The notes under the pieces are model-generated. The model was given only the letters and a program-made list of their open reading frames with translations, had not been told where the DNA came from and made no database searches. Below, piece by piece: positions 8,845-41,184 of a stretch of 64,000 nt of DNA (position 1 is its first letter; every line of letters begins with the position of its first letter). Made by a program: the position numbers and the translations under genes. Source of the DNA: an uncultured Dehalococcoidaceae bacterium (GTDB taxonomy: Bacteria > Chloroflexota > Dehalococcoidia > Dehalococcoidales > RBG-16-60-22); the NCBI GenBank assembly GCA_964558675.1, contig CAZLEY010000002.1:9359-73358 (forward strand). The letters are read 5' to 3'.

Positions 8845-8873
8845 TTGACAGACTGGGGATAACAGTATATAAT
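8845..8873 (+). promoter_or_regulatory. Consensus sigma-70-type promoter of fur
   Basis: TTGACA at 8845-8850, a 17-nt spacer, then TATAAT at 8868-8873. Confidence 0.6.
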
Positions 8874-8876
8874 GTA

Positions 8877-9342: not shown

Positions 9343-9357
9343 TTTTTTTAGTCAATA

Positions 9358-9385
9358 TTGCTGCAAATGAGAAGCATTTGTATTT
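9358..9385. promoter_or_regulatory. Candidate Fur box upstream of feoA
   Basis: Core TGCAAATGAGAAGCATTTGTA at 9362-9382. The arm CAAATG and its reverse complement CATTTG form an inverted repeat. Confidence 0.45.
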
Positions 9386-9435
9386 AACCAGTCTGGCTGT
9401 GGGAAAGACCGGGGAAAGCGCAGGAGACATACCAT

Positions 9436-9690: not shown

Positions 9691-11393
9691 AAATTCTGCT
9701 TATGGGCAATCCCAATGTCGGGAAGAGCGTTGTCTTCTCCCGCCTTACCGGCGTTGGCGTCATCGCTTCCAACTATCCGGGGACGACTGTAAGCTATACC
9801 AGAGGCTTCACGAAAATCGGAGATGACAGGGTTGAGGTCATTGATGTCCCCGGCACCTATACGCTGGAGCCGACCAGCGAAGCCGAGGAAGTTGCCGCGC
9901 GGATGCTTGATGAAGGGGACGTGGTTGTAAATGTTGTCGATGCTACCAACCTGGAACGGAACCTTTATTTAACCCTGCAACTATTGGAAAGACATGTTCC
10001 GGTAGTGGTCGCCCTGAATATATGGGATGACACCAAGCATCGTGGGATAAATATTGACCTGGAAAAGCTTAGAGAGCTTCTGGGTATACCTGTAACCCCG
10101 ACGGTGGCGGTAGCTGGTGAGGGCATAAAGGAACTGGTAGATAGTATTCCCAGAGCTGTCTCGCCCGATATGCCGGCTCGGAGCCGTGATGAGCGCTGGG
10201 CCGCCATCGGCGGTATCATTGACCAGGTTCAGCACATTACTCACCGCCATCATACCTGGCGGGAGAGGTTGGCCGATGCCAGTGTCAAGCCCCTGAGTGG
10301 AGGAGTCATAGCACTGGTCATCTTGGCCTGCGCCTTTTTTATCGTCCGTTTTATCGGCGAGAGCCTTATCGGCTATGTGTTTGACCCCCTGTTTAATACC
10401 CTGTGGACACCGGTTCTGTCGTGGTTAGGCAACCTCATGGGTAGTACGGGTTTTCTCCACGATATCGTAATCGGTAAGCTCATCGATGGCGAACTGGACT
10501 TTGTTCAGTCATTCGGATTATTATCCAGCGGTCTTTATGTGCCTTTTGCCATGGTCCTGCCTTATATTTTCTCTTTCTATCTCGTACTTGGGCTACTTGA
10601 AGATGCAGGATATTTGCCCCGGCTCGGGGTTTTGATGGATACAGTCATGCACCGTCTGGGCTTGCACGGATATGCTATCATTCCGACCTTGCTTGGACTT
10701 GGCTGCAATGTGCCGGCTATCCTTGCCACGCGTATCCTGGAAAGCACTAGAGGGAGGTTTATTGCCGCCACGCTGATTTCTATTGCCGTACCCTGTGCTG
10801 CACTGCAGGCGATGATTTTCGGCCTTGTTGGCGAGCGTGGAGTGCAGTATGTTGCCATCGTCTACGGCACACTGTTCGTGGTCTGGGTCATTCTGGGTAT
10901 TATACTCCGCCATACTACCAGGGGATTTACTCCTGAGTTGCTCATCGAGATTCCTCCATATCGTATGCCACTATGGCAAGCCGTATTACAGAAACTGTGG
11001 ATGAGGACCTATGGTTTCCTGAAGGAAGCCGTGCCCATAATCCTGGGGGCCGTCCTGGTCATCAACGTTCTCTATTTCCTCGGGGTATTTGGCGCCATTG
11101 CTGATTTCACGGCACCGGTGATAACCGGTCTTCTGGGGCTGCCCAAGGAAGCGGTAACGGCTTTAGTAATCGGTTTTCTCCGCAAGGATGTAGCCTTGGG
11201 TATGCTGGCTCCGCTGGCGCTGAGCTCTGAGCAACTGGTCGTTGGCAGCGTTGTTCTGGCTATGTTTTTCCCGTGTATTGCGACCTTCGTTGTTCTCCTT
11301 AGAGAACTCGGGGTGGTAAACATGCTTAAGTCGGCCGGTATAATGATTTCCTCGGCACTCATCGCTGGGGGAATATTGAATTTGATTCTCTAG
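9687..11393 (+). CDS. feoB: Ferrous iron transporter FeoB (short form)
   Basis: N-terminal G-domain GNPNVGKSVVFSRLTG...DVPGTY...NIWD followed by a polytopic membrane domain. GTG start. Confidence 0.9.
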   Translation: MKILLMGNPNVGKSVVFSRLTGVGVIASNYPGTTVSYTRGFTKIGDDRVEVIDVPGTYTLEPTSEAEEVAARMLDEGDVVVNVVDATNLERNLYLTLQLLERHVPVVVALNIWDDTKHRGINIDLEKLRELLGIPVTPTVAVAGEGIKELVDSIPRAVSPDMPARSRDERWAAIGGIIDQVQHITHRHHTWRERLADASVKPLSGGVIALVILACAFFIVRFIGESLIGYVFDPLFNTLWTPVLSWLGNLMGSTGFLHDIVIGKLIDGELDFVQSFGLLSSGLYVPFAMVLPYIFSFYLVLGLLEDAGYLPRLGVLMDTVMHRLGLHGYAIIPTLLGLGCNVPAILATRILESTRGRFIAATLISIAVPCAALQAMIFGLVGERGVQYVAIVYGTLFVVWVILGIILRHTTRGFTPELLIEIPPYRMPLWQAVLQKLWMRTYGFLKEAVPIILGAVLVINVLYFLGVFGAIADFTAPVITGLLGLPKEAVTALVIGFLRKDVALGMLAPLALSSEQLVVGSVVLAMFFPCIATFVVLLRELGVVNMLKSAGIMISSALIAGGILNLIL

Positions 11394-24542: not shown

Positions 24543-24884
24543 ATGAGCAAGATAATAGAGATTACCGATCAAAATTTTGAGGAGGAAGTCCTGAAATCAA
24601 ACCTGCCCACAGAGGTAGATTTCTGGGCGCCCTGGTGTGGCCCGTGCCACATGGTTATACCGATATACGAAAAACTCTCCGAGGAGTATGAAGGCAGATT
24701 TAAATTCTGCATGATTAATGTGGATGAAAACCAGCAGACAGCAGTAAAATATCAGATTATGAGCATACCAATGCAGATGTACTTTGTTAACGGTGAGAAG
24801 GTTGACGAAATCCTCGGCGCCGTCCCGGAGCATATTATCCGGACAATGGTAGACAGCATCCTCCAGAGTCCGCCGACAGATTAA
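24543..24884 (+). CDS. trxA: Thioredoxin
   Basis: WAPWCGPCHM active site. 113 aa. Confidence 0.9.
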   Translation: MSKIIEITDQNFEEEVLKSNLPTEVDFWAPWCGPCHMVIPIYEKLSEEYEGRFKFCMINVDENQQTAVKYQIMSIPMQMYFVNGEKVDEILGAVPEHIIRTMVDSILQSPPTD

Positions 24885-25085
24885 AAAGGTAGGCTCAAAG
24901 CGCTCTTGACCTTATGTGTTGAGCAGGACAGGCGGGATAGTGAGAACCCGGGAAGTGAACCGAGAGTGCCCATAATGTAGAGAGCGAATCGATTTACAAT
25001 CAACTTATAGTCAACAAGAGAAGAATCGGGGAAAGCCAACAAGAGGCCACCCCAGCGTTCACAAATTACAAGGAGATAGATAGAC

Positions 25086-26402
25086 ATGAAAGTATGCATT
25101 ATCGGAGCCGGTGCTGGCGGCAGGGGCGCCTCGGGACGGATTCGACAGCTGGACAAACAAGCCCAGATAGACATCTTCAGTACCCAGAGTGAGATTGGTT
25201 ATGCGCCCTGTGAACCACCCTTTGTACTTAAAGGGGTTTCCCGCTGGGACGATATATTTTATCCCGGCAAATTTTTCGAGGAGAGAAATATAACTGTTCA
25301 TTTGAGCACGGAAGTCACCGATATTCTCAGGAAGGGAAAACGCATTATCGCTGGGGGTAAAAGCTATCCTTACGATAAGCTAATTCTAAGTCCCGGGGCT
25401 GTCCCCTCCGTTCCTCCAATCCCCGGGCTGGATGGCAAAAATGAGTTTACTCTCAGCACGAATATTGCCGATGGTAAAGCCCTGGATAAAATCATCCCGA
25501 AATACACCAGTGCTGCCGTCATAGGTGCGGGAGCTATCGGGGTAGAGCTAACCCTGGCTCTTATTGCCCGAGGCTACAAGGAAGTCTACCTCATGGACAT
25601 GCTGGAGAATATCCTGCCCGCTGGCCTGGATAAGGATATGACGGGCAAGGTTGAGCAGACAATGCGAAAGAATGGCGTGGAGCTGATTACGTCTGCCAGC
25701 ATCAGCAGCGTAAAAACCGAGTCTGGAAGGAAACGTATCATTCTTCCTGACCGAGAACTGGAAGTAGATCTTATCTTCCTGACCACCGGCGCCAGACCTA
25801 ACGTCGAGCTAGCCCGAAAAGCAGGAATTGAAATAGGAGAGACAGGGGGAATACTGGTGAACCAGTATTTACAGACAAGTGACCCCGATATCTATGCCGC
25901 TGGTGATTGCATGGAGAACTGGGATATGATGACCGGCGCAAAGACCCGCCGCCTGATGGTTACCTCCGCCGGCAGGACCGGCAATGTGGCCGGTGAGAAT
26001 TTGGTTTCAGGAAATTCTTTGCCCTATGAAGGCACCCTCATGACCTTCACTATTGAAATCTTTGGCTATCAAATAGGTGCCGCCGGTTTTACGGAGAGGG
26101 TTGCCCGAGAGAAAGGGCTGGATATCATATGCGCCACAAGTACCTTCCCCAGCACGCGACCAAAATATGGTGGTAAGCTCGTTCACTCCAAGCTTATCGC
26201 TGAACGCCGGACCGGCACCTTGGTTGGGGCACAGATTATCTCGGAGGAGATGGTAAGAGGTCTGGTCAGTGAAATGGCTCTCGCCATAGCCGAGAAAGTG
26301 CCGTTGCACAGACTGGTCCTGCTTGAGTCCCCTTATTCGCCGGCGGTAGGAATGGATCCGATAGGGGTGGGGGTAAGAGAGCTAGCGGATAAGCTCGGCT
26401 GA
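25086..26402 (+). CDS. CoA-disulfide reductase / NADH oxidase-family flavoprotein, paralogue 1
   Basis: IIGAGAGG, single Cys in YAPCEPP, second dinucleotide fold VIGAGAIGVE, and AAGDCMEN. Confidence 0.7.
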   Translation: MKVCIIGAGAGGRGASGRIRQLDKQAQIDIFSTQSEIGYAPCEPPFVLKGVSRWDDIFYPGKFFEERNITVHLSTEVTDILRKGKRIIAGGKSYPYDKLILSPGAVPSVPPIPGLDGKNEFTLSTNIADGKALDKIIPKYTSAAVIGAGAIGVELTLALIARGYKEVYLMDMLENILPAGLDKDMTGKVEQTMRKNGVELITSASISSVKTESGRKRIILPDRELEVDLIFLTTGARPNVELARKAGIEIGETGGILVNQYLQTSDPDIYAAGDCMENWDMMTGAKTRRLMVTSAGRTGNVAGENLVSGNSLPYEGTLMTFTIEIFGYQIGAAGFTERVAREKGLDIICATSTFPSTRPKYGGKLVHSKLIAERRTGTLVGAQIISEEMVRGLVSEMALAIAEKVPLHRLVLLESPYSPAVGMDPIGVGVRELADKLG

Positions 26403-26492
26403 TGCCTGGTGCTCCTCTACTCAATGATATGGAGATAAGGGCTCAAGAGGCACGATAGGACATGGAAGAGAGATTAATGACAGGAGGCCAAA

Positions 26493-27818
26493 ATGAAGGT
26501 AAGCATTATTGGAACCGGTGACGGCGGTGCTACGGCGGCCAACCAGATTAGCCGCATGGGTAGCGAGGCGCAAATCGATACTTTCAGTCGAAGGTTGGAG
26601 CTTGGTGTTCCACCGTGCGAGATGCCGCTGGTCATCAGTGGGGATATCGCCAGCTGGGATGAGTTGGCTCGCGGCTTTCGTAGTATGTCGTTCTGGGAGA
26701 AGCGCAATATAGGGATGCATTTGAATACCGAGGTTACCGAAATTGACAGGCGGGATAAATATCTGGTTGCCAATGGTAAAAAATATGGGTATGACAAGCT
26801 CATCCTGGCTCTCGGTGCTGCGCCTGTCATTCCTTCCTTTCCAGGGTTGGACAGAAAGAATGAATATGCCATGAGCACCGATATGGCTGATGGAGTTGTT
26901 CTGGCGAGTGTCATTCCTCAGTGTACCGAGGTGGCTATCATTGGCGGTGGCTTCATCGGCCTGGAGATTGCCGCGGCTCTGAAAGCCAGGGGATATAGCA
27001 AGGTCTACCTTCTGGTCAGACGAGCTATATTGCGGGCAAACCTGGACCAGGATATGGCAGAAAAGGTAGAAAGCGTTCTGGCGGAGAACGGGGTGGAAGT
27101 GATTATGCCAGCCGATGTTAAAAGCGTGGTCAGCGATAGAGGTAAAAAGCGTGTGATTCTCTCCGACCGGGAGCTTGATGTGGATTTCATCTTCTTTGGA
27201 ACCGGGGCTGTGCCCGATGTTGGTCTGGCTCGAAAAGCGGGGCTGGATGTAGGCGAGACAGGGGCAATAGTGGTGAACCGGTATCTTCAGACGAGTGACC
27301 CTGATATCTATGCCATTGGTGATTGTATGGAGAACTGGGATATGGTTACGGAGTCGAAGAGGCAGCACCAGCTGGCCAGTAACGCCATTCGGACCGGGTT
27401 TATAGCCGGCAGAAACGTAGCCCTGGGCAATCTGCTCACTTACGAAGGCACCGTGATGCCTTTCGTTACCAGTATATTTGGTCATCAGATAGGGGCGGTA
27501 GGCTTTACCGAGAGAGAAGCGGAGGAAAGGGGATTGAACGCCGTGTCGGTCACCGTTGACACGCCTCGTCTTCGGGACAGGTTCAACGGGAAACCTGCCC
27601 GTTACAAACTTGTTGCCGACGGCAAGACCGGGACCCTAATCGGCGCCCAGATAATCTCCGAGGAGATAGTAACCGGTACGGTGGACAAGCTGGCGGTAGC
27701 TATTGCCTGTAAGATGCCGCTGGCAAAGCTGGTTCAGATTGACAGCAGCTACTCACCTCACGTACAGGAAGACCAGATAGCTGTCCCTTTGCACCGTTTA
27801 ATTGATAAACTTGGCTAA
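26493..27818 (+). CDS. CoA-disulfide reductase / NADH oxidase-family flavoprotein, paralogue 2
   Basis: About half of its residues are identical to the preceding ORF by eye. Same motif order: IIGTGDGG, VPPCEMP, IIGGGFIGLE, AIGDCMEN. Confidence 0.7.
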   Translation: MKVSIIGTGDGGATAANQISRMGSEAQIDTFSRRLELGVPPCEMPLVISGDIASWDELARGFRSMSFWEKRNIGMHLNTEVTEIDRRDKYLVANGKKYGYDKLILALGAAPVIPSFPGLDRKNEYAMSTDMADGVVLASVIPQCTEVAIIGGGFIGLEIAAALKARGYSKVYLLVRRAILRANLDQDMAEKVESVLAENGVEVIMPADVKSVVSDRGKKRVILSDRELDVDFIFFGTGAVPDVGLARKAGLDVGETGAIVVNRYLQTSDPDIYAIGDCMENWDMVTESKRQHQLASNAIRTGFIAGRNVALGNLLTYEGTVMPFVTSIFGHQIGAVGFTEREAEERGLNAVSVTVDTPRLRDRFNGKPARYKLVADGKTGTLIGAQIISEEIVTGTVDKLAVAIACKMPLAKLVQIDSSYSPHVQEDQIAVPLHRLIDKLG

Positions 27819-27845
27819 GGAAATAGCTGAAGGGGTATAATAAGC

Positions 27846-28145
27846 ATGGCAAAATTCAGCGAGATAGAAGAGGCGCGAAAGTTACTGGGACTCGGTGAGA
27901 CAGCTACGCTTAAGGAGATAAAGAGTGCCTACCGGCGTATGGCGAAGCAGCATCATCCTGATAAGGTTGTCGACAAAGACCAGGCCGAAAGCGCAACTAT
28001 GAAAAGATTGAACTGGGCTTATAAACTCCTTCTGGACTACTGTGCCGGCTATAAGTATAGCTTCAGGAAGGATGATGTAGCCCGTACCTATCCGTATGAC
28101 GAATATATGGAAACTTTCAAAGAAAAGTGGTTTAACAGCATCTAG
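27846..28145 (+). CDS. Small J-domain protein
   Basis: YRRMAKQHHPDK carries the HPD motif. 99 aa. Confidence 0.75.
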   Translation: MAKFSEIEEARKLLGLGETATLKEIKSAYRRMAKQHHPDKVVDKDQAESATMKRLNWAYKLLLDYCAGYKYSFRKDDVARTYPYDEYMETFKEKWFNSI

Positions 28146-28605: not shown

Positions 28606-29334
28606 CTAGACTTTTTTACGGTAGTGGGTGATATCTCTGAATATAGAAATCTGGCACACTGTCCCATCAGAATCGACGTAGGGAGCTGCCACTATCTCAT
28701 AGGTTCTGCCATCTGGAAACTGGCATTCCCAGTTCATGACTTTTCCATTGTTGATAACTTCCGGTATTTTACAGTCCTGCATGCAGGGAGTATTAGCTTT
28801 TTTCAGGTGTTCGTAGCAGGTAGAACCGGTGCCCTCGCCAAAATCATTCACCATATTGGAATTCATGAATCGTATCCTGTAATCCGGGCCGGTGATGATG
28901 ACGCCATCTGCCATACCATCGACGATTTTCAGAAGCTTGTCTCTTTCGGCGGTTATCACTGTCTCCAGTTGCCGGGATTTTTCTGCCTGATTTCGTATAA
29001 TACCAACAAGGCAGCCAATAACCCCGGCGAATAAGGTAAAAATTATCATCCTGAGTAAAGGGTCAGGAAAAGGAGATATGAAAAAAGCGCGGGGCAGGAA
29101 GATAATGAAGCTCACCAGCGTGAGGATAATCGCTCCTTTAACCTTGGCGGTATAGCCGGCGTATATTATTGGTGCCAGAAACAGAAGACGGTGTATATCG
29201 TGCACACCGTAAAAGAAATTGGCCCTAAGGGTATTCCATGCCGCCCAGTCTACCAGTTCACCGAAATAGTAAAACAGGGTGCATAATACGAGGAGCAGAG
29301 GCATGATGAATGCCCTGAAACCAACATTATTCAT
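28606..29334 (-). CDS. Membrane protein (about 4 transmembrane helices) with a C-terminal Cys-containing PAS-like domain and no output domain
   Basis: The hydrophobic N-terminal half is followed by ERDKLLKIVDGMADGVIITGPDYRIRFMN...CYEHL...CMQDC. Confidence 0.55.
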   Translation of the reverse strand: MNNVGFRAFIMPLLLVLCTLFYYFGELVDWAAWNTLRANFFYGVHDIHRLLFLAPIIYAGYTAKVKGAIILTLVSFIIFLPRAFFISPFPDPLLRMIIFTLFAGVIGCLVGIIRNQAEKSRQLETVITAERDKLLKIVDGMADGVIITGPDYRIRFMNSNMVNDFGEGTGSTCYEHLKKANTPCMQDCKIPEVINNGKVMNWECQFPDGRTYEIVAAPYVDSDGTVCQISIFRDITHYRKKV

Positions 29335-29362
29335 AGTTTCTCACTGATGTCCTGAATATATT

Positions 29363-29821
29363 TTACTCTGTGGTTCTCAGTTCATCAACAATCATTTCGA
29401 CGCAAAGGGGTATCGCCTCTGTCACTTCGGGGGTACATTCCTCACTGAAACGGCTTGTATCTGCCGCTTCGATGGCGAATATGTCAATCCGGGATGGCAA
29501 AGCCATGCCGAGCTTCCTGCCGAGTTCAAGAGCCGTAGCGAAATTAACATCATGGACCGAGGCAGCGTGCCGGGTGGCATCAAATACCTCCGGGTCAAGC
29601 CGGTAAATCTGGCCTGCCCTGCCCCCGACGGTCTGAATGGCATCAATGATAATAGCCCTGTCATAGTCAGCCAGCAGGTCCAGTATGTCAAGACCAGCCA
29701 GGCTCGTCTCCATAACTGTCGCCTCATGGTCGAGTCTGCGTTCCAGTTCGTTAGCAACCCGGACACCTGCACCGTCGTCGGTGAGAATAGGGTTGCCCAG
29801 TCCCAGAACCAGTGTCTTCAT
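29363..29821 (-). CDS. [NiFe]-hydrogenase maturation endopeptidase
   Basis: MKTLVLGLGNPILTDDGAGVRV and DAIQTVG motifs. Confidence 0.85.
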   Translation of the reverse strand: MKTLVLGLGNPILTDDGAGVRVANELERRLDHEATVMETSLAGLDILDLLADYDRAIIIDAIQTVGGRAGQIYRLDPEVFDATRHAASVHDVNFATALELGRKLGMALPSRIDIFAIEAADTSRFSEECTPEVTEAIPLCVEMIVDELRTTE

Positions 29822-29863
29822 TTCCCAATCCTCTTATGTACGTGTAACTCTCACCTTAAGTGG

Positions 29864-31345
29864 TTAGGAGGGCAGGTGCTGACTGAGCCTGTCAATCACC
29901 TCTCCCTTGCTATCACGAATAACCACCTCCAGCGGCATCTGTCCTGGCAGCGCGTGGGTAGCGCAGGCCATGCACGGGTCGTAGGCGCGAAATGCCATCT
30001 CGACCATATTCAGCAGTCCTTCCGATGCCACCTGGCCCTTCTTAATCAACCCCTGGGCTGCCCTCTTGACCGACATATTCATCGCCGGGTTATTCATTAC
30101 CGTAGCCACAATCAGGTTCACCTTCTCGATAATGCCTTTATCATCGGTCTGATAATGGTGAATCAGAACGCCGCGAGGAGCCTCAACAACACCGACTCCC
30201 TCGTCGGGAGTGGCCGTTGGGATGGTCCTGACCTCGGGGCTGGTTATCTCACTATCCTGGCAGAGCTCCAGGAGACGCTCGGCGGCGTACAGTATCTCGA
30301 TTAGCCTGGCCCAGTGGAAGGCAAGTGTGGCATGCACCGGCTTGCCGCCCAGTGTCTCATACATCCTTTCGTACTCAGCCTGAGCCAGAGGTGTAGCCAT
30401 GCCGTCAGCCACATTAAGTCTGGCCAGAGAATTCACCCGGTAAACGCCGCTGTCCTTGCCGTCAACGAGGCCCTTCCAGCCGACATTTTTCAGGAAGGGG
30501 AACTTCAGGTAAGACCAGGGCTCAGTGTGCTCGGCTATATAGTCCAGATAGTCAGCCGCTTTAAATCTGGCAGTCTCCTTCCCATCGGGGTCGACCACGC
30601 GGAGGTCGCCTTCATAGAAGTTCACCTTGTTATTGCTGTCAACCATGCCCATGTAGTAGCTGTTCATGGTGTAGATGTCACCGGTTATCAGCTCCAGGTA
30701 TTCTTTATTGGCCAGCACCAGGTCGTCGAACAGCTTTATGCCTAGTTTGCCGAACTCAACCAGTGATTTGGCTTTCTCCTCGAAGTCTTTTCGCTCCTCC
30801 TCGGTAATTGGCTTGCTCATGCCTCCCGGCAGACCGCAGACAGGATGGGTCGCCTTGCCCCCGATAACCGCCTGAATATCCTGGGCATAGGCCCGGTGCT
30901 TTATCACCTCGCTGCCAATGTCAAGGCCAACCTTGGCTACCAGCCCGAGGATATTTCTCTCGGCGGGGTCGCTGGTGGGTCCCAGGACAAAGTCTGGGGC
31001 GGCCAGGGCATAAAAGTGAGCAACATGGGAGTGAATCATGTGGGCGCAGTAGAATAATTCCCTCAGCTTCTTGGCGGCTGGCGGTGGGTCTACGTGGTAG
31101 ACGGCATCGGCTGCCTTGGTGGATGCCATGTGGTGGGCACCGGGGCAGACCCCGCAGATGCGCGTCGTTATCCGGGGCATCTCCTCAACCGGCCTTCCCT
31201 CACAGAATTTCTCGAAACCGCGAAGCTCAGGTATCTGTAGATAGGCGTTCTCAACATCCCCCTCGTCGTTCAGGAATATTTCTATCTTGCCGTGTCCCTC
31301 GAGCCTGGTTATGGGGTCAATGCTGATCTTTTCCATTTCACTCAC
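29864..31345 (-). CDS. mvhA: [NiFe]-hydrogenase large subunit, MvhA/Vhu type (group 3c-like)
   Basis: [10 protein letters not shown]...[11 protein letters not shown] near the N-terminus and DPCMACATH at the C-terminus. Confidence 0.85.
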
Positions 31346-31415
31346 TCCTTAATTGTTATGGAGCATTTTCTCCTTCAGCTTCTGATTAAATTACCCGAAT
31401 ATGTCTGCCACAAAT

Positions 31416-32378
31416 TTAAGTTTTAGGGAGGCGTTTTCGCTTCAACATAGAATCGGCCAGCCCGAATCTATAGAAAGTACCCGCCGGGTCAACCACTTCA
31501 TCCACCAGTTTCTTAATCTCCTCCTCGCTCTCACCCTGATAGATAGACGCGATGGCGCTGACCAGCTTGGCGCCCTGGTCAGCTACCCCCGGCGGCGGGC
31601 CGAAGCAGCCGCGGCAGGGCATATTGGCGTTAATGCAGCGGAGACCACAGCCTCCCCGCGTTGCCGGCCCGCAACAGATTATACCCTGTTCCAGCAGGCA
31701 TTTCTCAGGGTCAGGTATAATCTCATGGGGACGGTAAAGCTTGGTTATCTTCTTTTCTTCTTTTTTGCGTTCACACTCGTCACAAAGCGTCTTATCCGAG
31801 GCAATCACCGACCCCACCGGAGGTAATTCGCCCTTAGCGAAGAGATTCACCAGCTTAAGGATAAGGTCTACCGGCGGCGGGCAACCCGGGACAAAGTATT
31901 CCACGTCAACTACCTGCGCCAGCGTCAGCACCGTGTCGAATAATTCAGGCAGTTCTAGCTCTCCTTCGGCAACCTTGGTCACGGTTTGAGGGAAAGTGCC
32001 GTTAGCATTGTTGTTTGACGGTGCTTCAATGTAAGCCCGCTGGAATATCTCGTCACGGCTGGTGAAATTGGCCAGTGCCGGTATGCCGCCGAAGCAGGCA
32101 CAGGCTCCAAAGGCCACCATTACCTTGGACTTATCACGCAGCAGTCTGGCAATCTCTTCCTGCTCGGTGCTTCTGACAGCCCCGTTGAAGAGGCATAAAT
32201 CAATGCTCTTATCCTCCATAGCCTTAACATGATGGTATTTAAAGTCTACGGCGATTGGCCAGAACACTATGTCGACCAGGTTGGCGATATCCAGTATCTT
32301 TTCATTGGTGTCAAGCACAGCCACATCACAGCCGCCGCAGGAAGCCGCCCAGTACAGCGCTAATTTCGGTTTAGCCAT
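31416..32378 (-). CDS. mvhG: [NiFe]-hydrogenase small subunit, MvhG type
   Basis: [23 protein letters not shown]. The ATG at 32378 overlaps the mvhD stop in an ATGGCTAA arrangement. The track start at 32393 is also possible. Confidence 0.8.
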   Translation of the reverse strand: MAKPKLALYWAASCGGCDVAVLDTNEKILDIANLVDIVFWPIAVDFKYHHVKAMEDKSIDLCLFNGAVRSTEQEEIARLLRDKSKVMVAFGACACFGGIPALANFTSRDEIFQRAYIEAPSNNNANGTFPQTVTKVAEGELELPELFDTVLTLAQVVDVEYFVPGCPPPVDLILKLVNLFAKGELPPVGSVIASDKTLCDECERKKEEKKITKLYRPHEIIPDPEKCLLEQGIICCGPATRGGCGLRCINANMPCRGCFGPPPGVADQGAKLVSAIASIYQGESEEEIKKLVDEVVDPAGTFYRFGLADSMLKRKRLPKT

Positions 32379-32793
32379 TCTCACTACCTCCATTACGACT
32401 GAAAGGTCCCAGTTGCCTTATTTGCTCCGTCATCTCGTTAACGACGGCAGCAAAGCGGTCTCCCTCTGACGCCGAGACCCATTCCAAACGTACCCGCTCG
32501 TCTTCAATCCCGAGCTGAGCCAGCATTTTCTTCAGTAAGGGTATCCGGCGGGCTGTCTTCTTATTACCATCCAGGTAATGACATTCACCGAGATGTCAGC
32601 CGCAGACCAGGACGCCGTCAGCACCCTTTTCAAATGCTTTCAGGATGAAGGTAGGGTCTACCCTTCCGGAGCACATGACCCGTACCACTCTAATATTGGG
32701 CGCATACTTCTTCCGCGAAGTGCCGGCAAGGTCAGCGCCGGCATATGAGCACCAGTTGCACAGGATACCTACAATCTTTGGTTCAAAGCTCAT
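32371..32793 (-). CDS. mvhD: MvhD-type hydrogenase/heterodisulfide reductase delta subunit, selenocysteine form (TGA at 32598-32596 read as Sec)
   Basis: The 65-aa track ORF ends VLVCG at a TGA. The same frame continues [48 protein letters not shown]... to TAA at 32373-32371. GC(U)HxGxCHY is the MvhD signature. Total length is 140 aa. Confidence 0.75.
32563..32579 (-). promoter_or_regulatory. Candidate SECIS hairpin for mvhD
   Basis: In the mRNA, AUUACC-UGGAU-GGUAAU begins 16 nt after the UGA. Confidence 0.35.
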
Positions 32794-32868
32794 GCTAACA
32801 CCCCCTGAATTTCGGCTAAAATTCGGTCCGCAGTGCTGATATAAATCAACGGTTTTTGTCGTTTGACC

Positions 32869-34545
32869 TTAGACGAGTGTTTTATCAGCTACACGTTCCT
32901 TAGCCACAGATTCATGGTAAGCTACCATTGCCTGCTCGGCTGCATTTACTATGTGATATACTATGGGAGAACCAGTAAGCGCTGGATGTGTCCCTATCTG
33001 GGAAAAACGAATATCCTCAGCCGTTGCCTTGTTCGCCACCAGAACAGCTAGAGCATTTGTCAGCTCTCCAACTGACACCCCACCATAGGCTTCGCCTCCC
33101 AGTATCCTTCCGCTGCTTCGGTCAGATATCAGGTTGACCTGCATCGGCTGGGCACCGGGCATACTGCCTGGATGCTTGTCTGGAGCACTCGCCTTACCGA
33201 TGAGCACGTCAAACCCTGCCTCTCTTGCTGCCTTCTCTGTCAGCCCGGCTGTACCTACGGCAACGTCTCCAACCCTGGTGCTAAACACTCCTATAACACC
33301 CTTGTTCTCCACGCAGGGCCTGAAGAGATTGGACGTAGCTATCCTGGCCTCATTTGTGGCAATTGAGGCCAAACGTAACGGGACCGGCTTGGCGGTAAAG
33401 AAGGAGTATTTCTCGGCGCAATCCCCTATAGCAAAAATGTTGGGGTCACTGGTCCTCATATATTGGTCTACTTTTATGCCCTTGGTAGCACCGATCTCGA
33501 GGCCTGCCTCTTGCGCCAACCTAGTATTAGGTGCCGAGCCAATGGCCATCATGACCAGGTCTGCCTTTAGTTGCTCTCCGCTGGACAACTCTACATGACT
33601 GACCTTACCGTTGCCGAGAATCTGATTAACACCATTTCCACATAATACTTTTATGTTAGCCTTCGCCAGCTCTTCCTCCACCCGTATGCAGAACGGTTCA
33701 TCACAATTTAAGGAGAGACAATGCGGCAATAATTCGACGATGGTCACATTCAAGCCCCGCTTGCGTAATTCATCGGCAAATTCTACCCCGATAAACCCGC
33801 CTCCTATGACCACTACATCTTTTGCCTTGGCCAGCGCCTTATCCAATGCCTGCAGGTACTCTACATCCTTTTTAACGGTATATACATTGTCTAACTCTCT
33901 ACCTGGTATTGGAGGCACCGCAGGCAGAGAGCCGGTGGCTAGTATTAGCTTATCGTAGCCGATGTTCCTGCCCCCGGCTGTGGTAACCCTCTGAGATTCC
34001 CTGTCGATTGAGGTTACCTCGTCGATTACTAACTCAGCATCCCCTATGGCGCCGTCAGGTATCAAGTTCTTTTCCGCTGAGCCAAGAGTACCAAAAATGT
34101 AAGGAATACCGCAGGGCACCAATACCTTGGACTCTTTTCGAATAACCGTTATCTTCCCTACATTGTTGTTAAGCCTTTTGGCTGTAATCGCTGCCTGAAT
34201 TCCGGCAGCGCTACCTCCCACAATGACTAGTTCAGCTTTCTCCGCTGCAGGTACAGGCATCGGCGTTACCCACGTTGGCAATGCTGCTTCGCTTTCCGCC
34301 TCTCTAGAGACAGCCTGTCCTTCTTCCGCAGCCTCTATCGCTTCAAGTATTGAGCGGTCTACAGCCTGCTTATTCCTGATAATCTGCATCGCCTCACGCA
34401 CCAACCGGCGAGCAGCCGCTCTCCTTTCGCGTGCTTCCTTGGTATTGGCGTGGAGACCGAAAATAGTCAGGTATAAAACGAATGCCACGGGGATAAGGAT
34501 TATAGGTATGGCTATGCCCAGCGCTAATACAATCTCCCACTGCAT
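32869..34545 (-). CDS. Membrane-anchored pyridine nucleotide-disulfide oxidoreductase (CoADR/Nox-like) encoded between hdrA and mvhD
   Basis: N-terminal transmembrane helix MQWEIVLALGIAIPIILIPVAFVLYLTIFG and a basic linker. Then VIVGGSAAGIQAA, LVPCGIPY, VIGGGFIGVEFA and AIGDCAE. Confidence 0.7.
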   Translation of the reverse strand: MQWEIVLALGIAIPIILIPVAFVLYLTIFGLHANTKEARERRAAARRLVREAMQIIRNKQAVDRSILEAIEAAEEGQAVSREAESEAALPTWVTPMPVPAAEKAELVIVGGSAAGIQAAITAKRLNNNVGKITVIRKESKVLVPCGIPYIFGTLGSAEKNLIPDGAIGDAELVIDEVTSIDRESQRVTTAGGRNIGYDKLILATGSLPAVPPIPGRELDNVYTVKKDVEYLQALDKALAKAKDVVVIGGGFIGVEFADELRKRGLNVTIVELLPHCLSLNCDEPFCIRVEEELAKANIKVLCGNGVNQILGNGKVSHVELSSGEQLKADLVMMAIGSAPNTRLAQEAGLEIGATKGIKVDQYMRTSDPNIFAIGDCAEKYSFFTAKPVPLRLASIATNEARIATSNLFRPCVENKGVIGVFSTRVGDVAVGTAGLTEKAAREAGFDVLIGKASAPDKHPGSMPGAQPMQVNLISDRSSGRILGGEAYGGVSVGELTNALAVLVANKATAEDIRFSQIGTHPALTGSPIVYHIVNAAEQAMVAYHESVAKERVADKTLV

Positions 34546-34591
34546 CAGTACACCTCCTTCTGCACAGTTGTGCTCAAATTCGTAAATCCTT

Positions 34592-36553
34592 TCATACTAG
34601 TACCCCCTCAATTTCAGACATTATTTGCTCGGTGGTAAAGTGTTTACCCTTAATGGCACCGCTGGGGCAGGCGGCCACGCAGGTGCCGCAGCCCTTGCAG
34701 AGCGCCTCATTGATGCTGGCAACCTTCTTCTCTTCATCAAAGGTTATGGCCTTGTAAGGACAGAGGTCAATGCATATCTTGCAGCCGGCGCAGTGCTCCT
34801 CATCCACAACGGCGATGGCGGATTCGATTTCCACGCTGCCCTTACTTATCATGGCAAGGACTCTGGCGGCGGCCGCCGATGCCTGAGCTACCGTGTCCGG
34901 GATGTCTTTCGGACTCTGGCAGCAGCCGGCGACGAAAATTCCCTCTGTCGTCGTGGCGACGGGGTCAAGCTTGGGATGCTTCTCCAGGAAGAACCCATCT
35001 GCCTTGCGGCTCAGTGAGAAGAGCCTGGCGACATCCTCGATATCGGCACGGGGCTCTAAAGCGCAGCTCAGGATAACCATATCCACGGGGAGCCGCCGTT
35101 TGCGGCGCACCAGCGTGTCCTCGCAGATGACAATAAGCTTGCCCTCTTCTTCAGGGCTTTCGGCGATGTCGGTAATCTCACCCGCCTTCCCCCGGACGAA
35201 GTTTACCCCCTCCTCCTGAATCCGCTCGTAGAACTCTTCGTAGCCTGAGCCGGCGCAGCGCATATCGATGTATAGCTGATATACAGTCGCCTCGGGCACC
35301 TTCTCTTTCAGCAGGTGAGAGAATTTCAACGAGTACATGCAGCACACCCGCGAGCAATATTTATGATAATTCTCATCACGGCTGCCAATACAGTGCAGGA
35401 TAGCTACGCTGCGTGGCGGTGAGCCATCCTTGAGTACCAGCCGGCCGTCCGTGGGGCCGGAGGCATTGCTCATTCTCTCAAACTGTATGCCGGTAAGAAC
35501 GTTATCGTATTGGCCGTAGCCGAACTGTGGGATTACGACGGGGTCGAAAGAATCAAAACCACTGGCAACAATAATATTACCCACATCCACTTCAACCGAT
35601 TTTTCCTTTTGCTCGAAGTCAATCGCCTTCGCCTCGCAGAACATCTCACAGGCGCGGCACTTACCTTTAAGGAAATAGGTGCAATGCTCCGTGTCGATAA
35701 CCGGCACATTGGGCACTGCCTGGGGGAATGGTGTGTAGATTGCCTTTCTCGTCCCAAGCCCGCAATCAAATTCGTTATCCGCCTTCATGGGGCATTTCTC
35801 CTGGCAGGTGCCGCATCCGGTGCATTTACTTTCATCCACGTAACGCGGTTTCTTTTTTATTTTTACCTTGAAATTGCCCACGTAGCCGGATACATCCACA
35901 ACCTCACTGTATGTCATCAGCTCGATGCTTTCGTGTGACCTCACCGAGGCCATCTTCGGTGTGAGTATTCAGGCAGAGCAGTCTAAGGTGGGGAAGGTCT
36001 TGTCCAGCCGGGCCATATTACCGCCGATTGAAGGCTCCCGCTCCACCAGATAGACTTTCTGGCCGGAATCCGCTATCTCCAGGGCTGCCTGTATCCCGGC
36101 GATACCGGCGCCTACCACCAGCGTGCACGGATTAACGGCGACTTCCTTTGTTTCCAGTGGCTCATGGAGGAAGACGCGTCTTACGGCAGCGGTAACCAGC
36201 GCTTTTGCCTTCTGAGTAGCCTTCTCACTGTCCTGATGCACCCAGGCGCATTGCTCACGGATATTGGCCATCTCAAATAGATAAGGATTCAAACCGGCGC
36301 TGGCCACGGTGTGCCGGAAGGTAGGCTCGTGTAATCGGGGTGAACATGAGGCCACCACGACGCGGTTCAGCCCCATTTCCTTAATATCGTTCTTGATTAA
36401 ATCCTGCCCGGGGTCTGAGCACATGAATTTGTAATCACGGGCCACCACCACCGACGGGAGGGTTTTGGCGTATTCGGTGACCTGCCCCACGTCAACCGTG
36501 CCGGCAATATTGGCTCCACAGTGGCAGACATAGACACCAATTTTTGGCTCCAT
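34592..36553 (-). CDS. hdrA: Heterodisulfide reductase subunit A, selenocysteine form (TGA at 35971-35969 read as Sec)
   Basis: Track ORFs 35969..36553 and 34592..35953 lie in one frame. The junction reads [18 protein letters not shown], the HdrA motif that carries Sec in known seleno-HdrA proteins. Total length is 653 aa. Confidence 0.8.
35940..35965 (-). promoter_or_regulatory. Candidate SECIS hairpin for hdrA
   Basis: The mRNA sequence CUCA-CA-CCGA AGAUGGCC UCGG-UGAG forms a 4+4 bp stem with a 2-nt bulge and an 8-nt G-rich loop. It starts 3 nt after the UGA. Confidence 0.3.
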
Positions 36554-36563
36554 TTTCCGCTCC

Positions 36564-37436
36564 TTAGATATATTTTGACAAGACCTTTTCTACGGGTACG
36601 ATACCATTCTTCAAACCGAGTTCCTTTTCGCCAAGTCCAAAGGCAATGCCCATAAGCTGGGTGAAGAAAAGGACAGGGAGGTTGAAGTGGGTCTTAAACT
36701 TCTTGTTTACCCGGCTTTGATACGCATCCAGATTCGTCTGGCATAATGGACAAACCGTAACAATACACTGAGCCCCGTTGCTTGAGGCGGAATCGAAAAT
36801 TTTATGAATCAGGTCTAATGCCACGTCTTCTTCGGAAATAATCAGTGAGCCCCCGCAGCAGCGGGCCTTGAGTGGGAATGGGGTGGGCTCTGCCCCCAGA
36901 CTGGCTACCAGTTTATCCAGGGATTGGGGAGCCTCGGGGTGGTCAAAACCAAATTTGGGGCGGACTACCTGGCAACCATAATAGGGGGCTACCTTCAGTT
37001 CGCTCAGGGGTTTTTTCACCCTGGACGCGATGGCATCATAGCCAATATCGGTGGTTATAACATCAAGGAGATGCCTGACTTTCACCGTGCCGTGGTATTT
37101 CAGTCCGCCAGCAGCCAGAGCCTCGTCTACTTTAGCCTTAAACTGGGGATACCCCTTAAGGTAAGCGTTGGTATGGTTAAAAACAACGTAGCAAGCACTG
37201 CATGGCGTTACCATATCGAGCCCTCGCTTTTCGGCCAGGGCCAGGTCACGTGACGCCATGCAAAAGGCACCGAGTTCATCAACGGAACTTGATGGCGTCG
37301 AGCCGCAGCAGTTCCAGTCTTCCAGCTCAGCGAGGTCAATATCTAGGAGCTTGCTCACGGCCCGGGCTGACCAGTTATACGCCTTGGCGCCTCCCTCAGA
37401 GGCGGAACAGCCGGGGAAATATGTATAATATTTCAA
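36564..37436 (-). CDS. hdrB: Heterodisulfide reductase subunit B (two CCG domains)
   Basis: FPGCS...NCCGS...YYGCQ...RCCGGS...CPLCQ. Confidence 0.85.
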
Positions 37437-38002
37437 CTGACACCTCCTAGAGATTCAGCTTTATCAAGGATAGCTCTTAGCTGATTGGTCCCTTCCGGTG
37501 TCAGCCTTCTCGCCCTTATAGACAGGCGGTCATGCCTGAACAGACTCAATGCTATCGGAATCATCCGCCAGGCACGCAGTGGATTACTAAATATATAGAA
37601 CCAGGTCATGAATCCGAATTCGGGGAGACTTCCCAGGCTGCAGGCGAAATGGTTGAAGCTTCGGTACATAGTGGGCGTGAAGCTCCCGGCATAGCTCAGG
37701 CCGGCGCGTTCTGCCAGACACTCCAGGGCATGCATCAGGCCTGTCTGTTTTATTCCTCTTGGACAGCGCACCGTGCACAGGTAGCAGGATAGGCAATACC
37801 ACATGGCATTGCTCGATAAAACTTCCTCGCGCATGCCCGCCCGCGCCATAGCTATGAGCTGTGAGGGTGTATGGTCCATTTTTTCGGCATTAGGACAGGA
37901 AGCGGTGCAGGTACCACACTGGATGCAGAGTCGAATACCTTCACCGCCGGGGATAGCACAAATTTCATCTACAAAAGTTACAGCCTTTGCCTCTACTACC
38001 AT
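37433..38002 (-). CDS. hdrC: Heterodisulfide reductase subunit C
   Basis: CIQCGTCTASCP and CLSCYLCTVRCP. Overlaps the hdrB start by 4 nt. Confidence 0.85.
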   Translation of the reverse strand: MVVEAKAVTFVDEICAIPGGEGIRLCIQCGTCTASCPNAEKMDHTPSQLIAMARAGMREEVLSSNAMWYCLSCYLCTVRCPRGIKQTGLMHALECLAERAGLSYAGSFTPTMYRSFNHFACSLGSLPEFGFMTWFYIFSNPLRAWRMIPIALSLFRHDRLSIRARRLTPEGTNQLRAILDKAESLGGVS

Positions 38003-38082
38003 AAAACTCCCCCTCTCGATATATAGGCCACTGATAATTCAGTTTGGGTTTGTAATTAAACAACACGTCTTATTCAGATGAA

Positions 38083-38108
38083 AAAAGGGAGTATTAATAC
38101 TCCCTTTT
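38083..38108 (-). terminator. Intrinsic terminator (perfect palindrome) between the MEWQ peptide genes and hdrC
   Basis: AAAAGGGAGTA-TTAA-TACTCCCTTTT. On the minus-strand RNA the hairpin is followed by UUUUUU. It overlaps the stop codon of the 63-aa ORF. Confidence 0.6.
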
Positions 38109-38298
38109 AAGTAACCTCGTGAGCTACCGTTTCTTCAACTGGCGTTACCGCTTTCCTTCGTGTGATGGTGACGCGCCGCCGTAGCCTGTCACGGGCAACC
38201 TGGTATAGACCACTGACGACCGCTATCCAGACCAGTAACGGGACGAAAATGATTACGGGTATTGCAATTACCAGGGCCAGTATTACCTGCCATTCCAT
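38107..38298 (-). CDS. MEWQ single-pass membrane peptide, copy 2 (63 aa)
   Basis: MEWQVILALVIAIPVIIFVPLLVWIAVVSGLYQVARDRLRRR... with an AAGGGGGA ribosome-binding site. Confidence 0.6.
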   Translation of the reverse strand: MEWQVILALVIAIPVIIFVPLLVWIAVVSGLYQVARDRLRRRVTITRRKAVTPVEETVAHEVT

Positions 38299-38352
38299 CT
38301 TGTGTTATTCCCCCTTTCTAAGTATTTCTGTTTATCTCTTCTGGTGTCATGG

Positions 38353-38523
38353 CTATTTGGTCTTGGCTGTTACCTTGACACCTTTCTCGCGGATAACTCG
38401 TCTCGCTCTCGATTCCTTAATGGCAGCGTAGATGCCACCAATGTTCAGGTACCAGACAAACGCTGCCGGGAACAGGATGATTGGTATTGCTATTACCAGC
38501 GCAACTATAAACTGCCATTCCAT
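38353..38523 (-). CDS. MEWQ single-pass membrane peptide, copy 1 (56 aa, below the ORF-track cutoff)
   Basis: The reverse complement from ATG at 38523 reads MEWQFIVALVIAIPIILFPAAFVWYLNIGGIYAAIKESRARRVIREKGVKVTAKTK, ending at TAG (38355-38353). AAGGGGG ribosome-binding site. Confidence 0.55.
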   Translation of the reverse strand: MEWQFIVALVIAIPIILFPAAFVWYLNIGGIYAAIKESRARRVIREKGVKVTAKTK

Positions 38524-38860: not shown

Positions 38861-39526
38861 GTGGGTAAGATAAGAATTTTAATCGCTGATGACCACGCCA
38901 TGGTGCGCGAGGGCACGCGCCAGATATTAGAGCAGGAGAAAGACCTGACCGTAGTTGCTGAGGCTGGTGATGGTGAGGAAGCGGTACGGTCGGCCGGTAC
39001 CTTCAAGCCGGACGTTGCCATAATGGACATCGCCATGCCCAGGCTTGACGGTATTGGGGCTACCAAGCAGATTAAGGCACTTTATCCTTCTATAGCCGTG
39101 TTGATACTTTCGGCTTATGATGACGACCAGTTTGTCATCAGTTTTTTAGAAGCCGGGGCGGCTGGCTACCTGTTGAAAAGTGTGCGAGGTCGTGAACTTG
39201 TTAATGCCGTACGAGCCGTATATGCTGGAGAGTCGGTGCTTCATCCGGCAATTGCCCGTAAGGTGCTGAACCGTTTTGTGCCTGCTGCCGGTAACCTGGC
39301 GAGGCGGGAAGCATCAGAGCTGCTAAGTGAGCGAGAGATGGATGTTCTCAAGCTGGCGGCCAAAGGATTGCGCAGTGAGGATATCGCCCACGAACTGAGC
39401 CTCAGTCTCCGTACGGTTCAAAATCACCTGAACCATGTATTCAATAAGCTGCGGGTGAGCTCGCGGACCGAAGCCGTGGTACGCGCCTTAAAGGAGGGCT
39501 GGATTTCTCTTGATGATGTGCCATGA
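38861..39526 (+). CDS. NarL/LuxR-family response regulator
   Basis: Receiver domain ILIADDHAMVREG...DVAIMDIAMP plus a C-terminal LuxR HTH (LSEREMDVLKLAAKGLRSEDIAHEL). GTG start. Confidence 0.85.
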   Translation: MGKIRILIADDHAMVREGTRQILEQEKDLTVVAEAGDGEEAVRSAGTFKPDVAIMDIAMPRLDGIGATKQIKALYPSIAVLILSAYDDDQFVISFLEAGAAGYLLKSVRGRELVNAVRAVYAGESVLHPAIARKVLNRFVPAAGNLARREASELLSEREMDVLKLAAKGLRSEDIAHELSLSLRTVQNHLNHVFNKLRVSSRTEAVVRALKEGWISLDDVP

Positions 39527-40476: not shown

Positions 40477-41184
40477 CTATCCGGGCCCAAACCGGGGGGC
40501 TTCCTGCGGTGGCCACAGCTCCTCAGCTAAATCATCCAGCTCGATATCGGCGATGGGCACCTTCATCTCTCCCCTGGCTACCACTGCCTTGAGCTTTTTG
40601 GAGCCCATCACCGACCCCAAGCCCGAGCGCCCGGCAGCATCTCCCTTATTGCTCATAATACAGGCTACAAGGGCGACCTTTTCTCCGGCCGGACCGATGC
40701 TGACGACTTTTGACGTTGGGCCGTGTTCCGCCTCCAGCGTGTCTTCAGTTTCATAAGTGCCTTTTCCCCAGAGGTAAGCGGCGTCTCTTAATTCGGCCCT
40801 GCCATTGTCAATGAGAAGGTAAACCGGCTTTTCTGAAATGCCGGTAAAGAATACACCATCATAGCCGGCAAACTTGAGATGAGGTCCAAAATGCCCGCCG
40901 GAATTGGCGTCACCCCAGCCGCCGGCAAGTGGCGATTTGGCTACGACTGCGTATCGGCAGCAGAAAGTGGCCGGCGTGCCGGTGAGCGGGCCGGTAAGCA
41001 GGCCAAACGTGTTCTCAGGCCCCAGTGCGTCCACTCCGCCCCGCTGCCGGCTGTAAAGAATCTTTGCCCCGACGCCGTAACCCCCTATGAAATCTCTGTA
41101 GAGGCTCTCGTCAGGTGCCTCATCCTTCATCTCCCCTGTGGAAAGGTTCACGAACAGGAGTTTGCCCATATATCCTCCAGCCAT
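40477..41184 (-). CDS. Aldehyde:ferredoxin oxidoreductase N-terminal domain only (truncated AOR)
   Basis: GKLLFVNLSTGEMKDEAPDESLYRDFIGGYGVGAKILY is the AOR_N opening. The ORF stops after 235 aa, whereas AOR enzymes are about 600 aa. Only ~140 nt remain before the next gene. Confidence 0.65.
   Translation of the reverse strand: MAGGYMGKLLFVNLSTGEMKDEAPDESLYRDFIGGYGVGAKILYSRQRGGVDALGPENTFGLLTGPLTGTPATFCCRYAVVAKSPLAGGWGDANSGGHFGPHLKFAGYDGVFFTGISEKPVYLLIDNGRAELRDAAYLWGKGTYETEDTLEAEHGPTSKVVSIGPAGEKVALVACIMSNKGDAAGRSGLGSVMGSKKLKAVVARGEMKVPIADIELDDLAEELWPPQEAPRFGPG

Follow-up and report, generated by a model that had tools for sequence, protein, structure and literature searches.

The 64,000-nucleotide (nt) stretch of DNA analysed here (the window; contig CAZLEY010000002.1 of assembly GCA_964558675.1, positions 9,359 to 73,358) comes from an uncultured Dehalococcoidaceae bacterium and holds a tightly packed minus-strand row of genes at 28606-38523 encoding a heterodisulfide reductase (Hdr) and an associated NiFe hydrogenase (Mvh), with the gene for a flavoprotein of 558 amino acids (aa) lying between hdrA and mvhD. 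The row runs from two small peptides, here called MEW peptides, through hdrC, hdrB, hdrA, the 558-aa gene, mvhD, mvhG, mvhA and hycI to a gene for a membrane protein with a PAS domain (TMPAS), and both hdrA and mvhD are read as encoding selenocysteine (Sec). The flavoprotein and its relation to Hdr-Mvh are the subject of this analysis. The features of the locus, including the parts of the flavoprotein gene, are:

38861-39526, plus strand: NarL/LuxR-type response regulator, divergent from the row (Pfam Response_reg and GerE)
38353-38523, minus strand: free MEW peptide of 56 aa upstream of hdrC (read from the open reading frame, ORF)
38107-38298, minus strand: free MEW peptide of 63 aa upstream of hdrC (ORF read)
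37433-38002, minus strand: hdrC (Pfam Fer4_8/Fer4_17)
36564-37436, minus strand: hdrB, two CCG domains (Pfam CCG, 3.7e-26)
34592-36553, minus strand: hdrA, selenoprotein of 654 aa (NCBIfam HdrA2 model, 889 bits, TGA read as U)
32869-34545, minus strand: gene of the 558-aa flavoprotein (ORF read)
34450-34545, minus strand: its predicted MEW transmembrane helix, residues 1-32 (modelled helix 2-32 and identity to a MEW peptide)
34237-34449, minus strand: its predicted Arg/Glu-rich helical stalk (residues ~33-82) and disordered spacer (83-103) (structure model and identity to P0270, a protein described below)
32968-34236, minus strand: its FAD and NAD(P)H core of the CoA-disulfide reductase (CoADR)/persulfide-reductase type with dimerisation domain (Pfam, phmmer against the PDB, Foldseek)
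32869-32967, minus strand: its predicted extra C-terminal helix, residues 527-558, and stop codon (modelled helix 527-553)
32371-32793, minus strand: mvhD, selenoprotein of 140 aa with CG-U-HLGECHY (Pfam FlpD, 9.2e-57, 191 bits)
31416-32393, minus strand: mvhG (Pfam Oxidored_q6; best NCBIfam model VhuG)
29864-31345, minus strand: mvhA (Pfam NiFeSe_Hases; best NCBIfam model VhuA)
29363-29821, minus strand: HycI-type maturation protease (Pfam HycI)
28606-29334, minus strand: TMPAS, the last gene of the operon (PAS_9, weak)

The gene order with short gaps around the 558-aa ORF, as given in the original prediction, was borne out by ORF reading together with Pfam and NCBIfam searches. HdrA, an HdrB with two CCG domains, HdrC, an FlpD-type MvhD and the small and large NiFe subunits are co-located, as expected of an operon of the MvhADG-HdrABC type, and the methanogen-specific NCBIfam equivalog cut-offs were not reached by any of the subunits (e.g. 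HdrA2 889 versus 1100, VhuA 448 versus 800). The hdrA gene contains a single in-frame TGA (35969-35971) and mvhD likewise one, in both cases at positions where Sec-containing forms are known, and the mvhD stop overlaps the mvhG start. The operon resembles the Vhu/HdrA selenoprotein form of the methanogen MvhADG-HdrABC system in uniting the six subunit types and the maturation protease and in having Sec in HdrA and MvhD, but it differs in its bacterial host, in being headed by MEW peptides and closed by TMPAS, and in the extra tethered flavoprotein between hdrA and mvhD. The canonical MvhADG-HdrABC complex is soluble and is not known to have such a flavoprotein component. Between hdrA and the 558-aa gene lie 46 nt, which include a GAAGGAGG ribosome-binding site, and another 75 nt separate the gene from mvhD. 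A promoter and terminator of its own had been named beforehand as a sign that the gene does not belong with its neighbours; a consensus scan of both its junctions showed nothing resembling a promoter or terminator on the minus strand, and the gene is probably co-transcribed with hdrCBA and mvhDGA.

In the 558-aa protein, Pfam placed Pyr_redox_2 at residues 105-382 (1.2e-64) and Pyr_redox_dim at residues 425-524 (8.9e-14), and Pyr_redox was also matched. An AlphaFold2 model built on 44 homologues, with a mean predicted local distance difference test score (pLDDT) of 79, starts with a hydrophobic helix (residues 2-32) and a second, long helix of low pLDDT (36-82); disordered residues 83-103 then lead into the core, and a further helix (527-553) follows at the C-terminus. 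For residues 76-101 the pLDDT is below 50. When aligned to its relatives, the C-terminal extension was found in forms bearing the MEW helix and was absent from soluble forms of 443 aa. The one N-terminal helix and the complete CoADR/Nox-type domain with VPCGIPY agree with what had been read from the sequence earlier, whereas the linker between them is shorter than the ~90 residues then proposed, at ~70 (residues 33-103). The helix is preceded by MQWE and followed by the strongly basic KEARERRAAARR, which by the positive-inside rule points to an N-out/C-in topology with the flavoprotein domain facing the cytoplasm; it is probably not a signal peptide, since its n-region carries no positive charge.

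The 558-aa protein was compared to enzymes of solved structure. The closest relatives by phmmer against the PDB were 8A56 (E 1e-55), the Thermus CoADR 6RUZ, 6PFZ, 3ICR and the Pyrococcus CoA persulfide/polysulfide reductase 4FX9 (E 1e-47 to 1e-55), and the top Foldseek matches of the model were CoA-persulfide reductase (CoAPR), CoADR-RHD and Npsr (TM-score ~0.7, probability 1.0), with Nox and Npx also among the structural neighbours. The redox cysteine C145 (VPCGIPY) aligns with the CGLPY cysteine of the solved CoA-persulfide reductase 8A56 and of Nox, and likewise with 6ruz. With Enterococcus faecalis CoAPR (8A56), P. horikoshii 4FX9, A. fulgidus Npsr (6PFZ), B. anthracis CoADR-RHD (3ICR) and S. 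loihica Npsr (3NTA), the protein shares the fold, the dimerisation domain and a single redox cysteine in CG(I/L)PY at 26-32% identity; it differs from them in the MEW helix and stalk, the C-terminal helix, the lack of a rhodanese domain, four additional cysteines (C276, C281, C286 and C376) and the location among hdr-mvh genes. Identity to the solved D. vulgaris relative 3IWA is ~29%. A Desulfovibrio 'Nox' (DVU3212) has been suggested as a partner of Qmo/Apr (PMC3333476).

The FAD fold, the NAD(P)H fold, the dimerisation domain and the redox cysteine ~40 residues into the core are those of the broad single-cysteine CoADR/Nox/Npx class, and three narrower assignments were rejected. Scores for CoA-disulfide reductase remained far below the cut-offs (TIGR03385, 252 versus 579 bits; NF007123, 217 versus 458). 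For an Npsr or CoADR-RHD persulfide reductase, Pfam finds no rhodanese domain, and the C-terminus is a single helix. In Nox and Npx the active-site histidine sits in the GxxHxG motif, the first dinucleotide motif; for an H2O-forming NADH oxidase or peroxidase, the corresponding motif here is GGSAAG and lacks this histidine, and the Streptococcus Nox model NF046103 gave 185 bits versus a cut-off of 600. Because it reaches no curated equivalog cut-off and lacks both the rhodanese domain and the histidine, the protein is filed in the broad class only. In the NAD(P)H fold, beta-2 ends in a glutamate (E271), which suggests that NADH is preferred. These results also bear on the idea that the protein is an NADH oxidase or peroxidase scavenging O2 or H2O2 at the membrane, where it would shield the oxygen-sensitive Sec, Fe-S and NiFe enzymes encoded around it. 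Homologues labelled 'NADH oxidase (H2O2-forming)' by JGI, the presence of Nox and Npx among the structural neighbours and the thiol-redox-rich surroundings (a thioredoxin, two paralogous flavoproteins and a C_GCAxxG_C_C protein) would fit such a role, but with best matches to persulfide and CoA-disulfide reductases rather than Nox, next to the low Nox score and the histidine-free motif, we consider it improbable.

Three of the additional cysteines (C276, C281 and C286; 33688-33720) are spaced as HC-x4-C-x4-C and lie in the loop and helix that follow beta-2 in the NAD(P)H fold. The fourth, C376, is the cysteine of GDCAE (33418-33420). All four were found to be invariant in 44/44 aligned family members, soluble and anchored alike, and are not present in the solved CoADR/Nox relatives. 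They may constitute a metal, cluster or redox-relay site.

The origin of the anchor was indicated by the two free peptides upstream of hdrC (38107-38298 and 38353-38523), both of which start with MEWQ, followed by a helix and a basic tail. Members of the family start with M-[EQD]-W and continue with a hydrophobic helix of ~25 residues, which ends in ..WYLNxGGxY, and a basic tail; all of these features are recognizable at the N-terminus of the 558-aa protein with deviations in places (VLYLTIFGLH). The first ~46-51 residues of the flavoprotein are 51% identical to the free peptide at 38353-38523, and the MEW profile, which itself included this sequence, matches the N-terminus at E 1.3e-24 in the source genome. 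Pfam and NCBIfam gave chance-level matches only for the MEW peptides and for the N-terminal 104 aa of the 558-aa protein. When the profile was run against 1.84 billion cluster representatives, 509 matches were obtained at E <= 0.001 and 236 at E <= 1e-10; nearly all of the best 150 listed were 50-90 aa long, some with two or three tandem copies. Judged by sequence, the flavoprotein anchor is thus a copy of previously undescribed MEW single-pass peptides. A fourth MEW peptide of 53 aa is encoded elsewhere in the source genome (G000:C5:56020-56163; L017 8021-8182), alone and away from any hdr gene, with methylmalonyl-CoA mutase, aldolase, alcohol dehydrogenase and purine salvage genes as neighbours. 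Two tandem MEW helices occur in the related flavoproteins P0010 (652 aa; L047 2685-4643) and P0011 (679 aa; L045 5192-7231), and a 151-aa protein of L047 also holds two MEW units.

A homologue search covering 5.8 billion proteins returned thousands of relatives of the flavoprotein. Among the best 120, soluble proteins of 442-446 aa that share 60-65% identity with the core of the 558-aa protein make up the great majority, and ~14 clusters carry the N-terminal extension. In a tree of the cores only, a single branch with 99% support in the Shimodaira-Hasegawa-like approximate likelihood ratio test (SH-aLRT) set the 14 MEW-bearing forms, recognized by sequence length, apart from the 106 soluble ones, in a sample biased towards the query and with an uncertain root. 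This topology would fit one fusion event. Within the soluble family, a subclade (P0032, P0053 and ~12 more clusters; ~583 aa) carries a C-terminal response-regulator receiver domain, which suggests a phosphorylation-controlled flavoprotein. One sampled soluble member follows a Hox-type hydrogenase. In the source genome, which is 95% complete, the 558-aa protein is the sole member of its subfamily, the paralogues being at most 33% identical, and a genome-wide search found no soluble copy. Among other genomes of the order, an orthologue was present in 14/150, in all 14 as the soluble form.

To assess how widely the arrangement occurs, MvhD orthologues were located in 40 other genomes of the family, and 12 loci were fetched; the sampled genomes are kin and most related contigs are short, so the counts are not independent. 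The order hdrA-[MEW-flavoprotein]-mvhD recurs in a genome of the same genus (96% identity of the flavoprotein) and in two metagenome contigs, L048 (92%) and L050 (73%), while contig L049 (83%) ends such that only the hdrA side is visible. The Hdr-Mvh variant put forward in the original prediction is therefore real and recurrent, being kept at 96, 92, 83 and 73% identity, but it is not general: four further contigs carry the insert, and its absence from the orthologous loci of 10 genera weakens the strong form of that claim. Several of the insert-free loci retain MEW peptides upstream of hdrC.

The same junction was found to hold a second type of enzyme. In L047, the gene between hdrA and mvhD (8783-10939) encodes P0270, a 718-aa protein with an N-terminus 68% identical to residues 3-78 (anchor and stalk) of the 558-aa protein, followed by a GltD/NfnB-like module (Fer4_20, Pyr_redox_2) and a two-cluster ferredoxin domain like the HdrA C-terminus. 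A GltD-like form also lies between hdrA and mvhD in L066 (2482-4638), where mvhG follows mvhD, and after hdrA in L067 (1191-2840), where the arrangement is partial. The ferredoxin domain of these proteins ends like HdrA (…IMSEIEEVLV). When the anchor and stalk were searched against the 5.8 billion proteins, restricted to those of 395-1256 aa, they were fused solely to CoADR-like and GltD-like enzymes. The hdrA|mvhD junction is thus a variable slot that is empty or occupied by one of two unrelated enzymes, a MEW-CoADR-like or a MEW-GltD-like protein. That another type of NAD(P)H flavoprotein, sharing anchor and stalk, occupies it elsewhere is the strongest argument for a functional tie between the slot and Hdr/MvhD.

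Furthermore, a second clade of MEW-flavoproteins (62-69% identical) was found within arrays of free MEW peptides, with a LuxR-type regulator and a GAF-PAS kinase as neighbours; in L001 and L047 these flavoproteins are encoded immediately upstream of hdrCBA clusters of other types. As a separate observation on these loci, HdrA of L001 (12440-17500) is split near residue 290, with NuoE- and NuoF-like genes separating the two parts, the second of which is fused to an N-terminal 2Fe-2S domain; HdrA is likewise split near residue 290 in L040, L042 and L044, with the halves ~1.4 kb apart.

Two further explanations were weighed. In the first, the flavoprotein would be a true structural subunit, its stalk or core docking onto HdrA/MvhD, tethering the bifurcating complex and moving NAD(P)H electrons in a three-port membrane complex (H2, NAD(H), ferredoxin/disulfide). 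The GltD/NfnB-like Fe-S protein, which shares slot, anchor and stalk with the 558-aa protein and has an HdrA-like ferredoxin domain at its C-terminus, is an electron-input module of the classic kind and coexists with mvhG in L066; the stalk is kept across differing catalytic domains, and C276, C281 and C286 are family-invariant while absent from solved relatives. CoADR-type enzymes, however, give hydride to a cysteine rather than single electrons to Fe-S chains, and no Fe-S domain was detected in the 558-aa protein; the cysteine trio is just as invariant in soluble forms away from hdr, and close relatives manage with an empty slot in which hdrA and mvhD abut or overlap. A structural subunit thus appears unlikely. 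In the second, recombination between MEW-coding repeats would have inserted a MEW-tagged housekeeping CoA-disulfide or persulfide reductase as an unrelated passenger that shares only transcription with Hdr-Mvh. Its patchy occurrence among close relatives, the MEW-coding repeats that flank such loci on both sides and could drive recombination, the action of soluble homologues in other contexts and the copy away from hdr in L045 are in line with a passenger, but the arrangement persists down to 73% protein identity, second-clade copies were independently placed beside other hdrCBA types, and the only slot occupants seen are pyridine-nucleotide flavoproteins, which makes a mere passenger rather unlikely.

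MEW peptides are not confined to this operon. By our own count, ~11 of ~35 MEW arrays in the family adjoin close orthologues of its hdrB. Of 12 MEW arrays fetched from elsewhere, 6 share a frame consisting of a LuxR regulator or kinase, MEW peptides, a cargo and a TMPAS orthologue. The cargo of these six (L054, L055, L058, L059, L062 and L064, from other genera of the family) is a Fer4_11 four-cluster ferredoxin and an NrfD-like membrane protein, with an additional molybdopterin subunit in L055. TMPAS orthologues (52-77% identical by tblastn or blastp, some on partial ORFs) end MEW-headed operons, closing hdr-mvh cargo in L033 and L036 and NrfCD-like cargo in the six arrays above. Orthologues of the response regulator (67-78% identity) adjoin MEW arrays in L001, L039, L045, L047, L051 and L055 and also in L056, L058, L059, L062, L064 and L065. 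MEW peptides and TMPAS thus form the conserved frame of a regulon in which the redox cargo can be exchanged.

Taken together, the 558-aa gene is best explained as encoding an optional accessory enzyme of a membrane-associated Hdr-Mvh regulon, namely a membrane-tethered NADH:thiol/persulfide oxidoreductase working beside Hdr-Mvh, a reading to which we give an even chance of being right. The membrane anchor and the pyridine-nucleotide/thiol-type active site that had been proposed for the extra protein are supported by sequence and model. We count in favour of this reading the packing of the operon without signals of the gene's own, the intact redox cysteine and both dinucleotide folds with persulfide and disulfide reductases as nearest solved relatives, the status of the protein as sole subfamily member in the source genome, and the gene order kept down to 73% identity. 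The second clade of MEW-flavoproteins upstream of other hdrCBA types (L001, L047), the branch of MEW-bearing forms with 99% SH-aLRT, the GltD-like slot occupant and the fusion of anchor and stalk to just two enzyme types were counted likewise.

Several observations weigh against it. In 10 other genera (L034-L043), hdrA and mvhD are immediate neighbours, overlapping or 0-3 nt apart (~11 nt in L041). In a tree of the HdrA C-terminus (225 columns only, 121 for L050), insert-bearing and insert-free loci are interleaved and at least 2 changes are needed, so that a single gain of the insert is unsupported by this short alignment. The MEW-flavoprotein of L045 has a membrane-bound NiFe hydrogenase as its neighbour, and no hdr gene lies within 15 kb of it. 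Sampled soluble members (L004-L010) usually adjoin Fe-S-handling genes (NifX-like, Mrp/MinD-ferredoxin, NifU_N, DUF5320, Zn-ribbon), and hdr was found next to none of those sampled. A Pfam scan of the 558-aa protein found no Fe-S domain. MEW arrays also head NrfCD-like operons, from which it follows that neither the anchor nor the MEW/TMPAS frame is specific to Hdr, and an HdrB match was not found in some genomes that hold MEW arrays. Because its presence is patchy on the HdrA tree, the flavoprotein is read as an optional add-on, neither an isolated case nor a constant component of the operon.

As an accessory enzyme of this kind, the 558-aa protein would contain FAD, form homodimers and probably prefer NADH. 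It would be a single-cysteine oxidoreductase resembling CoA-disulfide and persulfide reductases, tethered to the membrane on the cytoplasmic side through the N-out/C-in MEW helix and the long charged stalk. It would stem from a fusion between a MEW-peptide anchor and one of the widespread soluble flavoproteins of ~443 aa. Electrons would pass from NADH to FAD and on to the sulfenate or mixed disulfide of C145, and from C145 to a low-molecular-weight or protein-bound disulfide or persulfide, possibly drawn from the same thiol pool as that used by HdrB; since HdrB is itself a disulfide reductase, a flavoprotein and HdrB acting on one thiol pool is the simplest model. Both the substrate class (disulfide or persulfide) and the coupling to Hdr are thus putative. 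A direct electronic link into MvhD/HdrA is less likely for the 558-aa protein because it has no Fe-S domain. The H2/ferredoxin/disulfide system would in this way gain a pyridine-nucleotide (NAD(H)) port at the membrane. Speculatively, with a dithiol of low potential the link could run both ways, and with one of heterodisulfide-like potential it would run from NADH to disulfide only, in which case Hdr-Mvh operating in reverse would complete a conversion of NADH and reduced ferredoxin to H2.

Convergent to the hdr-mvh operon, the plus strand at 24543-28145 encodes a thioredoxin (24543-24884), a J-domain protein of 99 aa and a tandem pair of CoADR-like paralogues, which measure 438 and 441 aa and share ~30% identity with the 558-aa protein; the 96% relative (L011/L033) has this layout as well. 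A C_GCAxxG_C_C protein is also found among the thiol-redox genes near the operon. On the other side, a 235-aa ORF (40477-41184, minus strand) matches AFOR_N alone (1e-74), the N-terminal domain of aldehyde:ferredoxin oxidoreductase; no adjoining frame obviously encodes the remainder of the enzyme, and the ORF may be a fragment or an interrupted gene.

Pyridine-nucleotide flavoproteins encoded with HdrABC and an MvhD-like protein are shared with FlxABCD-HdrABC and with the HdrL/NfnB-fused Hdr of sulfate reducers, and the GltD-like slot occupant P0270 is of the same NfnB/GltD type as found in NAD(P)H-linked Hdr systems. Flx- and HdrL-type systems employ other NAD(P)H modules, however: the 558-aa protein is CoADR-type, without Fe-S clusters, membrane-tethered, and found alongside the Mvh hydrogenase rather than replacing it. 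In layout, the MEW peptides can be likened to small anchors of Dehalococcoidia respiratory enzymes such as RdhB (for RdhA) and to LiaI-type anchors under NarL-type two-component control, as short membrane proteins beside a catalytic partner, and regulation by the adjacent LuxR/NarL-type two-component system is plausible at this locus; unlike these, the MEW anchor is fused to the enzyme here and is also present as arrays of free peptides. In the literature searched on hdrA/mvhD with such flavoproteins and on Hdr-Mvh in Dehalococcoidia, no description of a MEW-flavoprotein in an hdr-mvh operon was found.

Hdr-Mvh-like complexes are very common in anaerobic bacteria, and their high-potential substrate and metabolic links are questions that the slot helps to address. 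A slot holding a thiol/persulfide-type NADH flavoprotein or a GltD-type NAD(P)H flavoprotein points to a sulfur, disulfide or persulfide substrate pool and to a pyridine-nucleotide link for Hdr-Mvh, and it suggests that membrane localisation matters for a complex usually regarded as soluble. The locus further exposes an undescribed family of small membrane peptides heading several kinds of redox operon in Dehalococcoidia. In a bolder and, in our estimate, doubtful extension, the MEW-tethered flavoproteins of the cassette slot, whether CoADR-like or GltD-like, would dock to Hdr-Mvh; joined by TMPAS and the free MEW peptides, they would convert this classically soluble bifurcating complex into a membrane-bound supercomplex in which H2, NAD(P)H and ferredoxin are coupled with a disulfide or sulfane substrate. 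If this were true, MEW peptides would represent a new general class of anchor for redox enzymes in bacteria without quinones.

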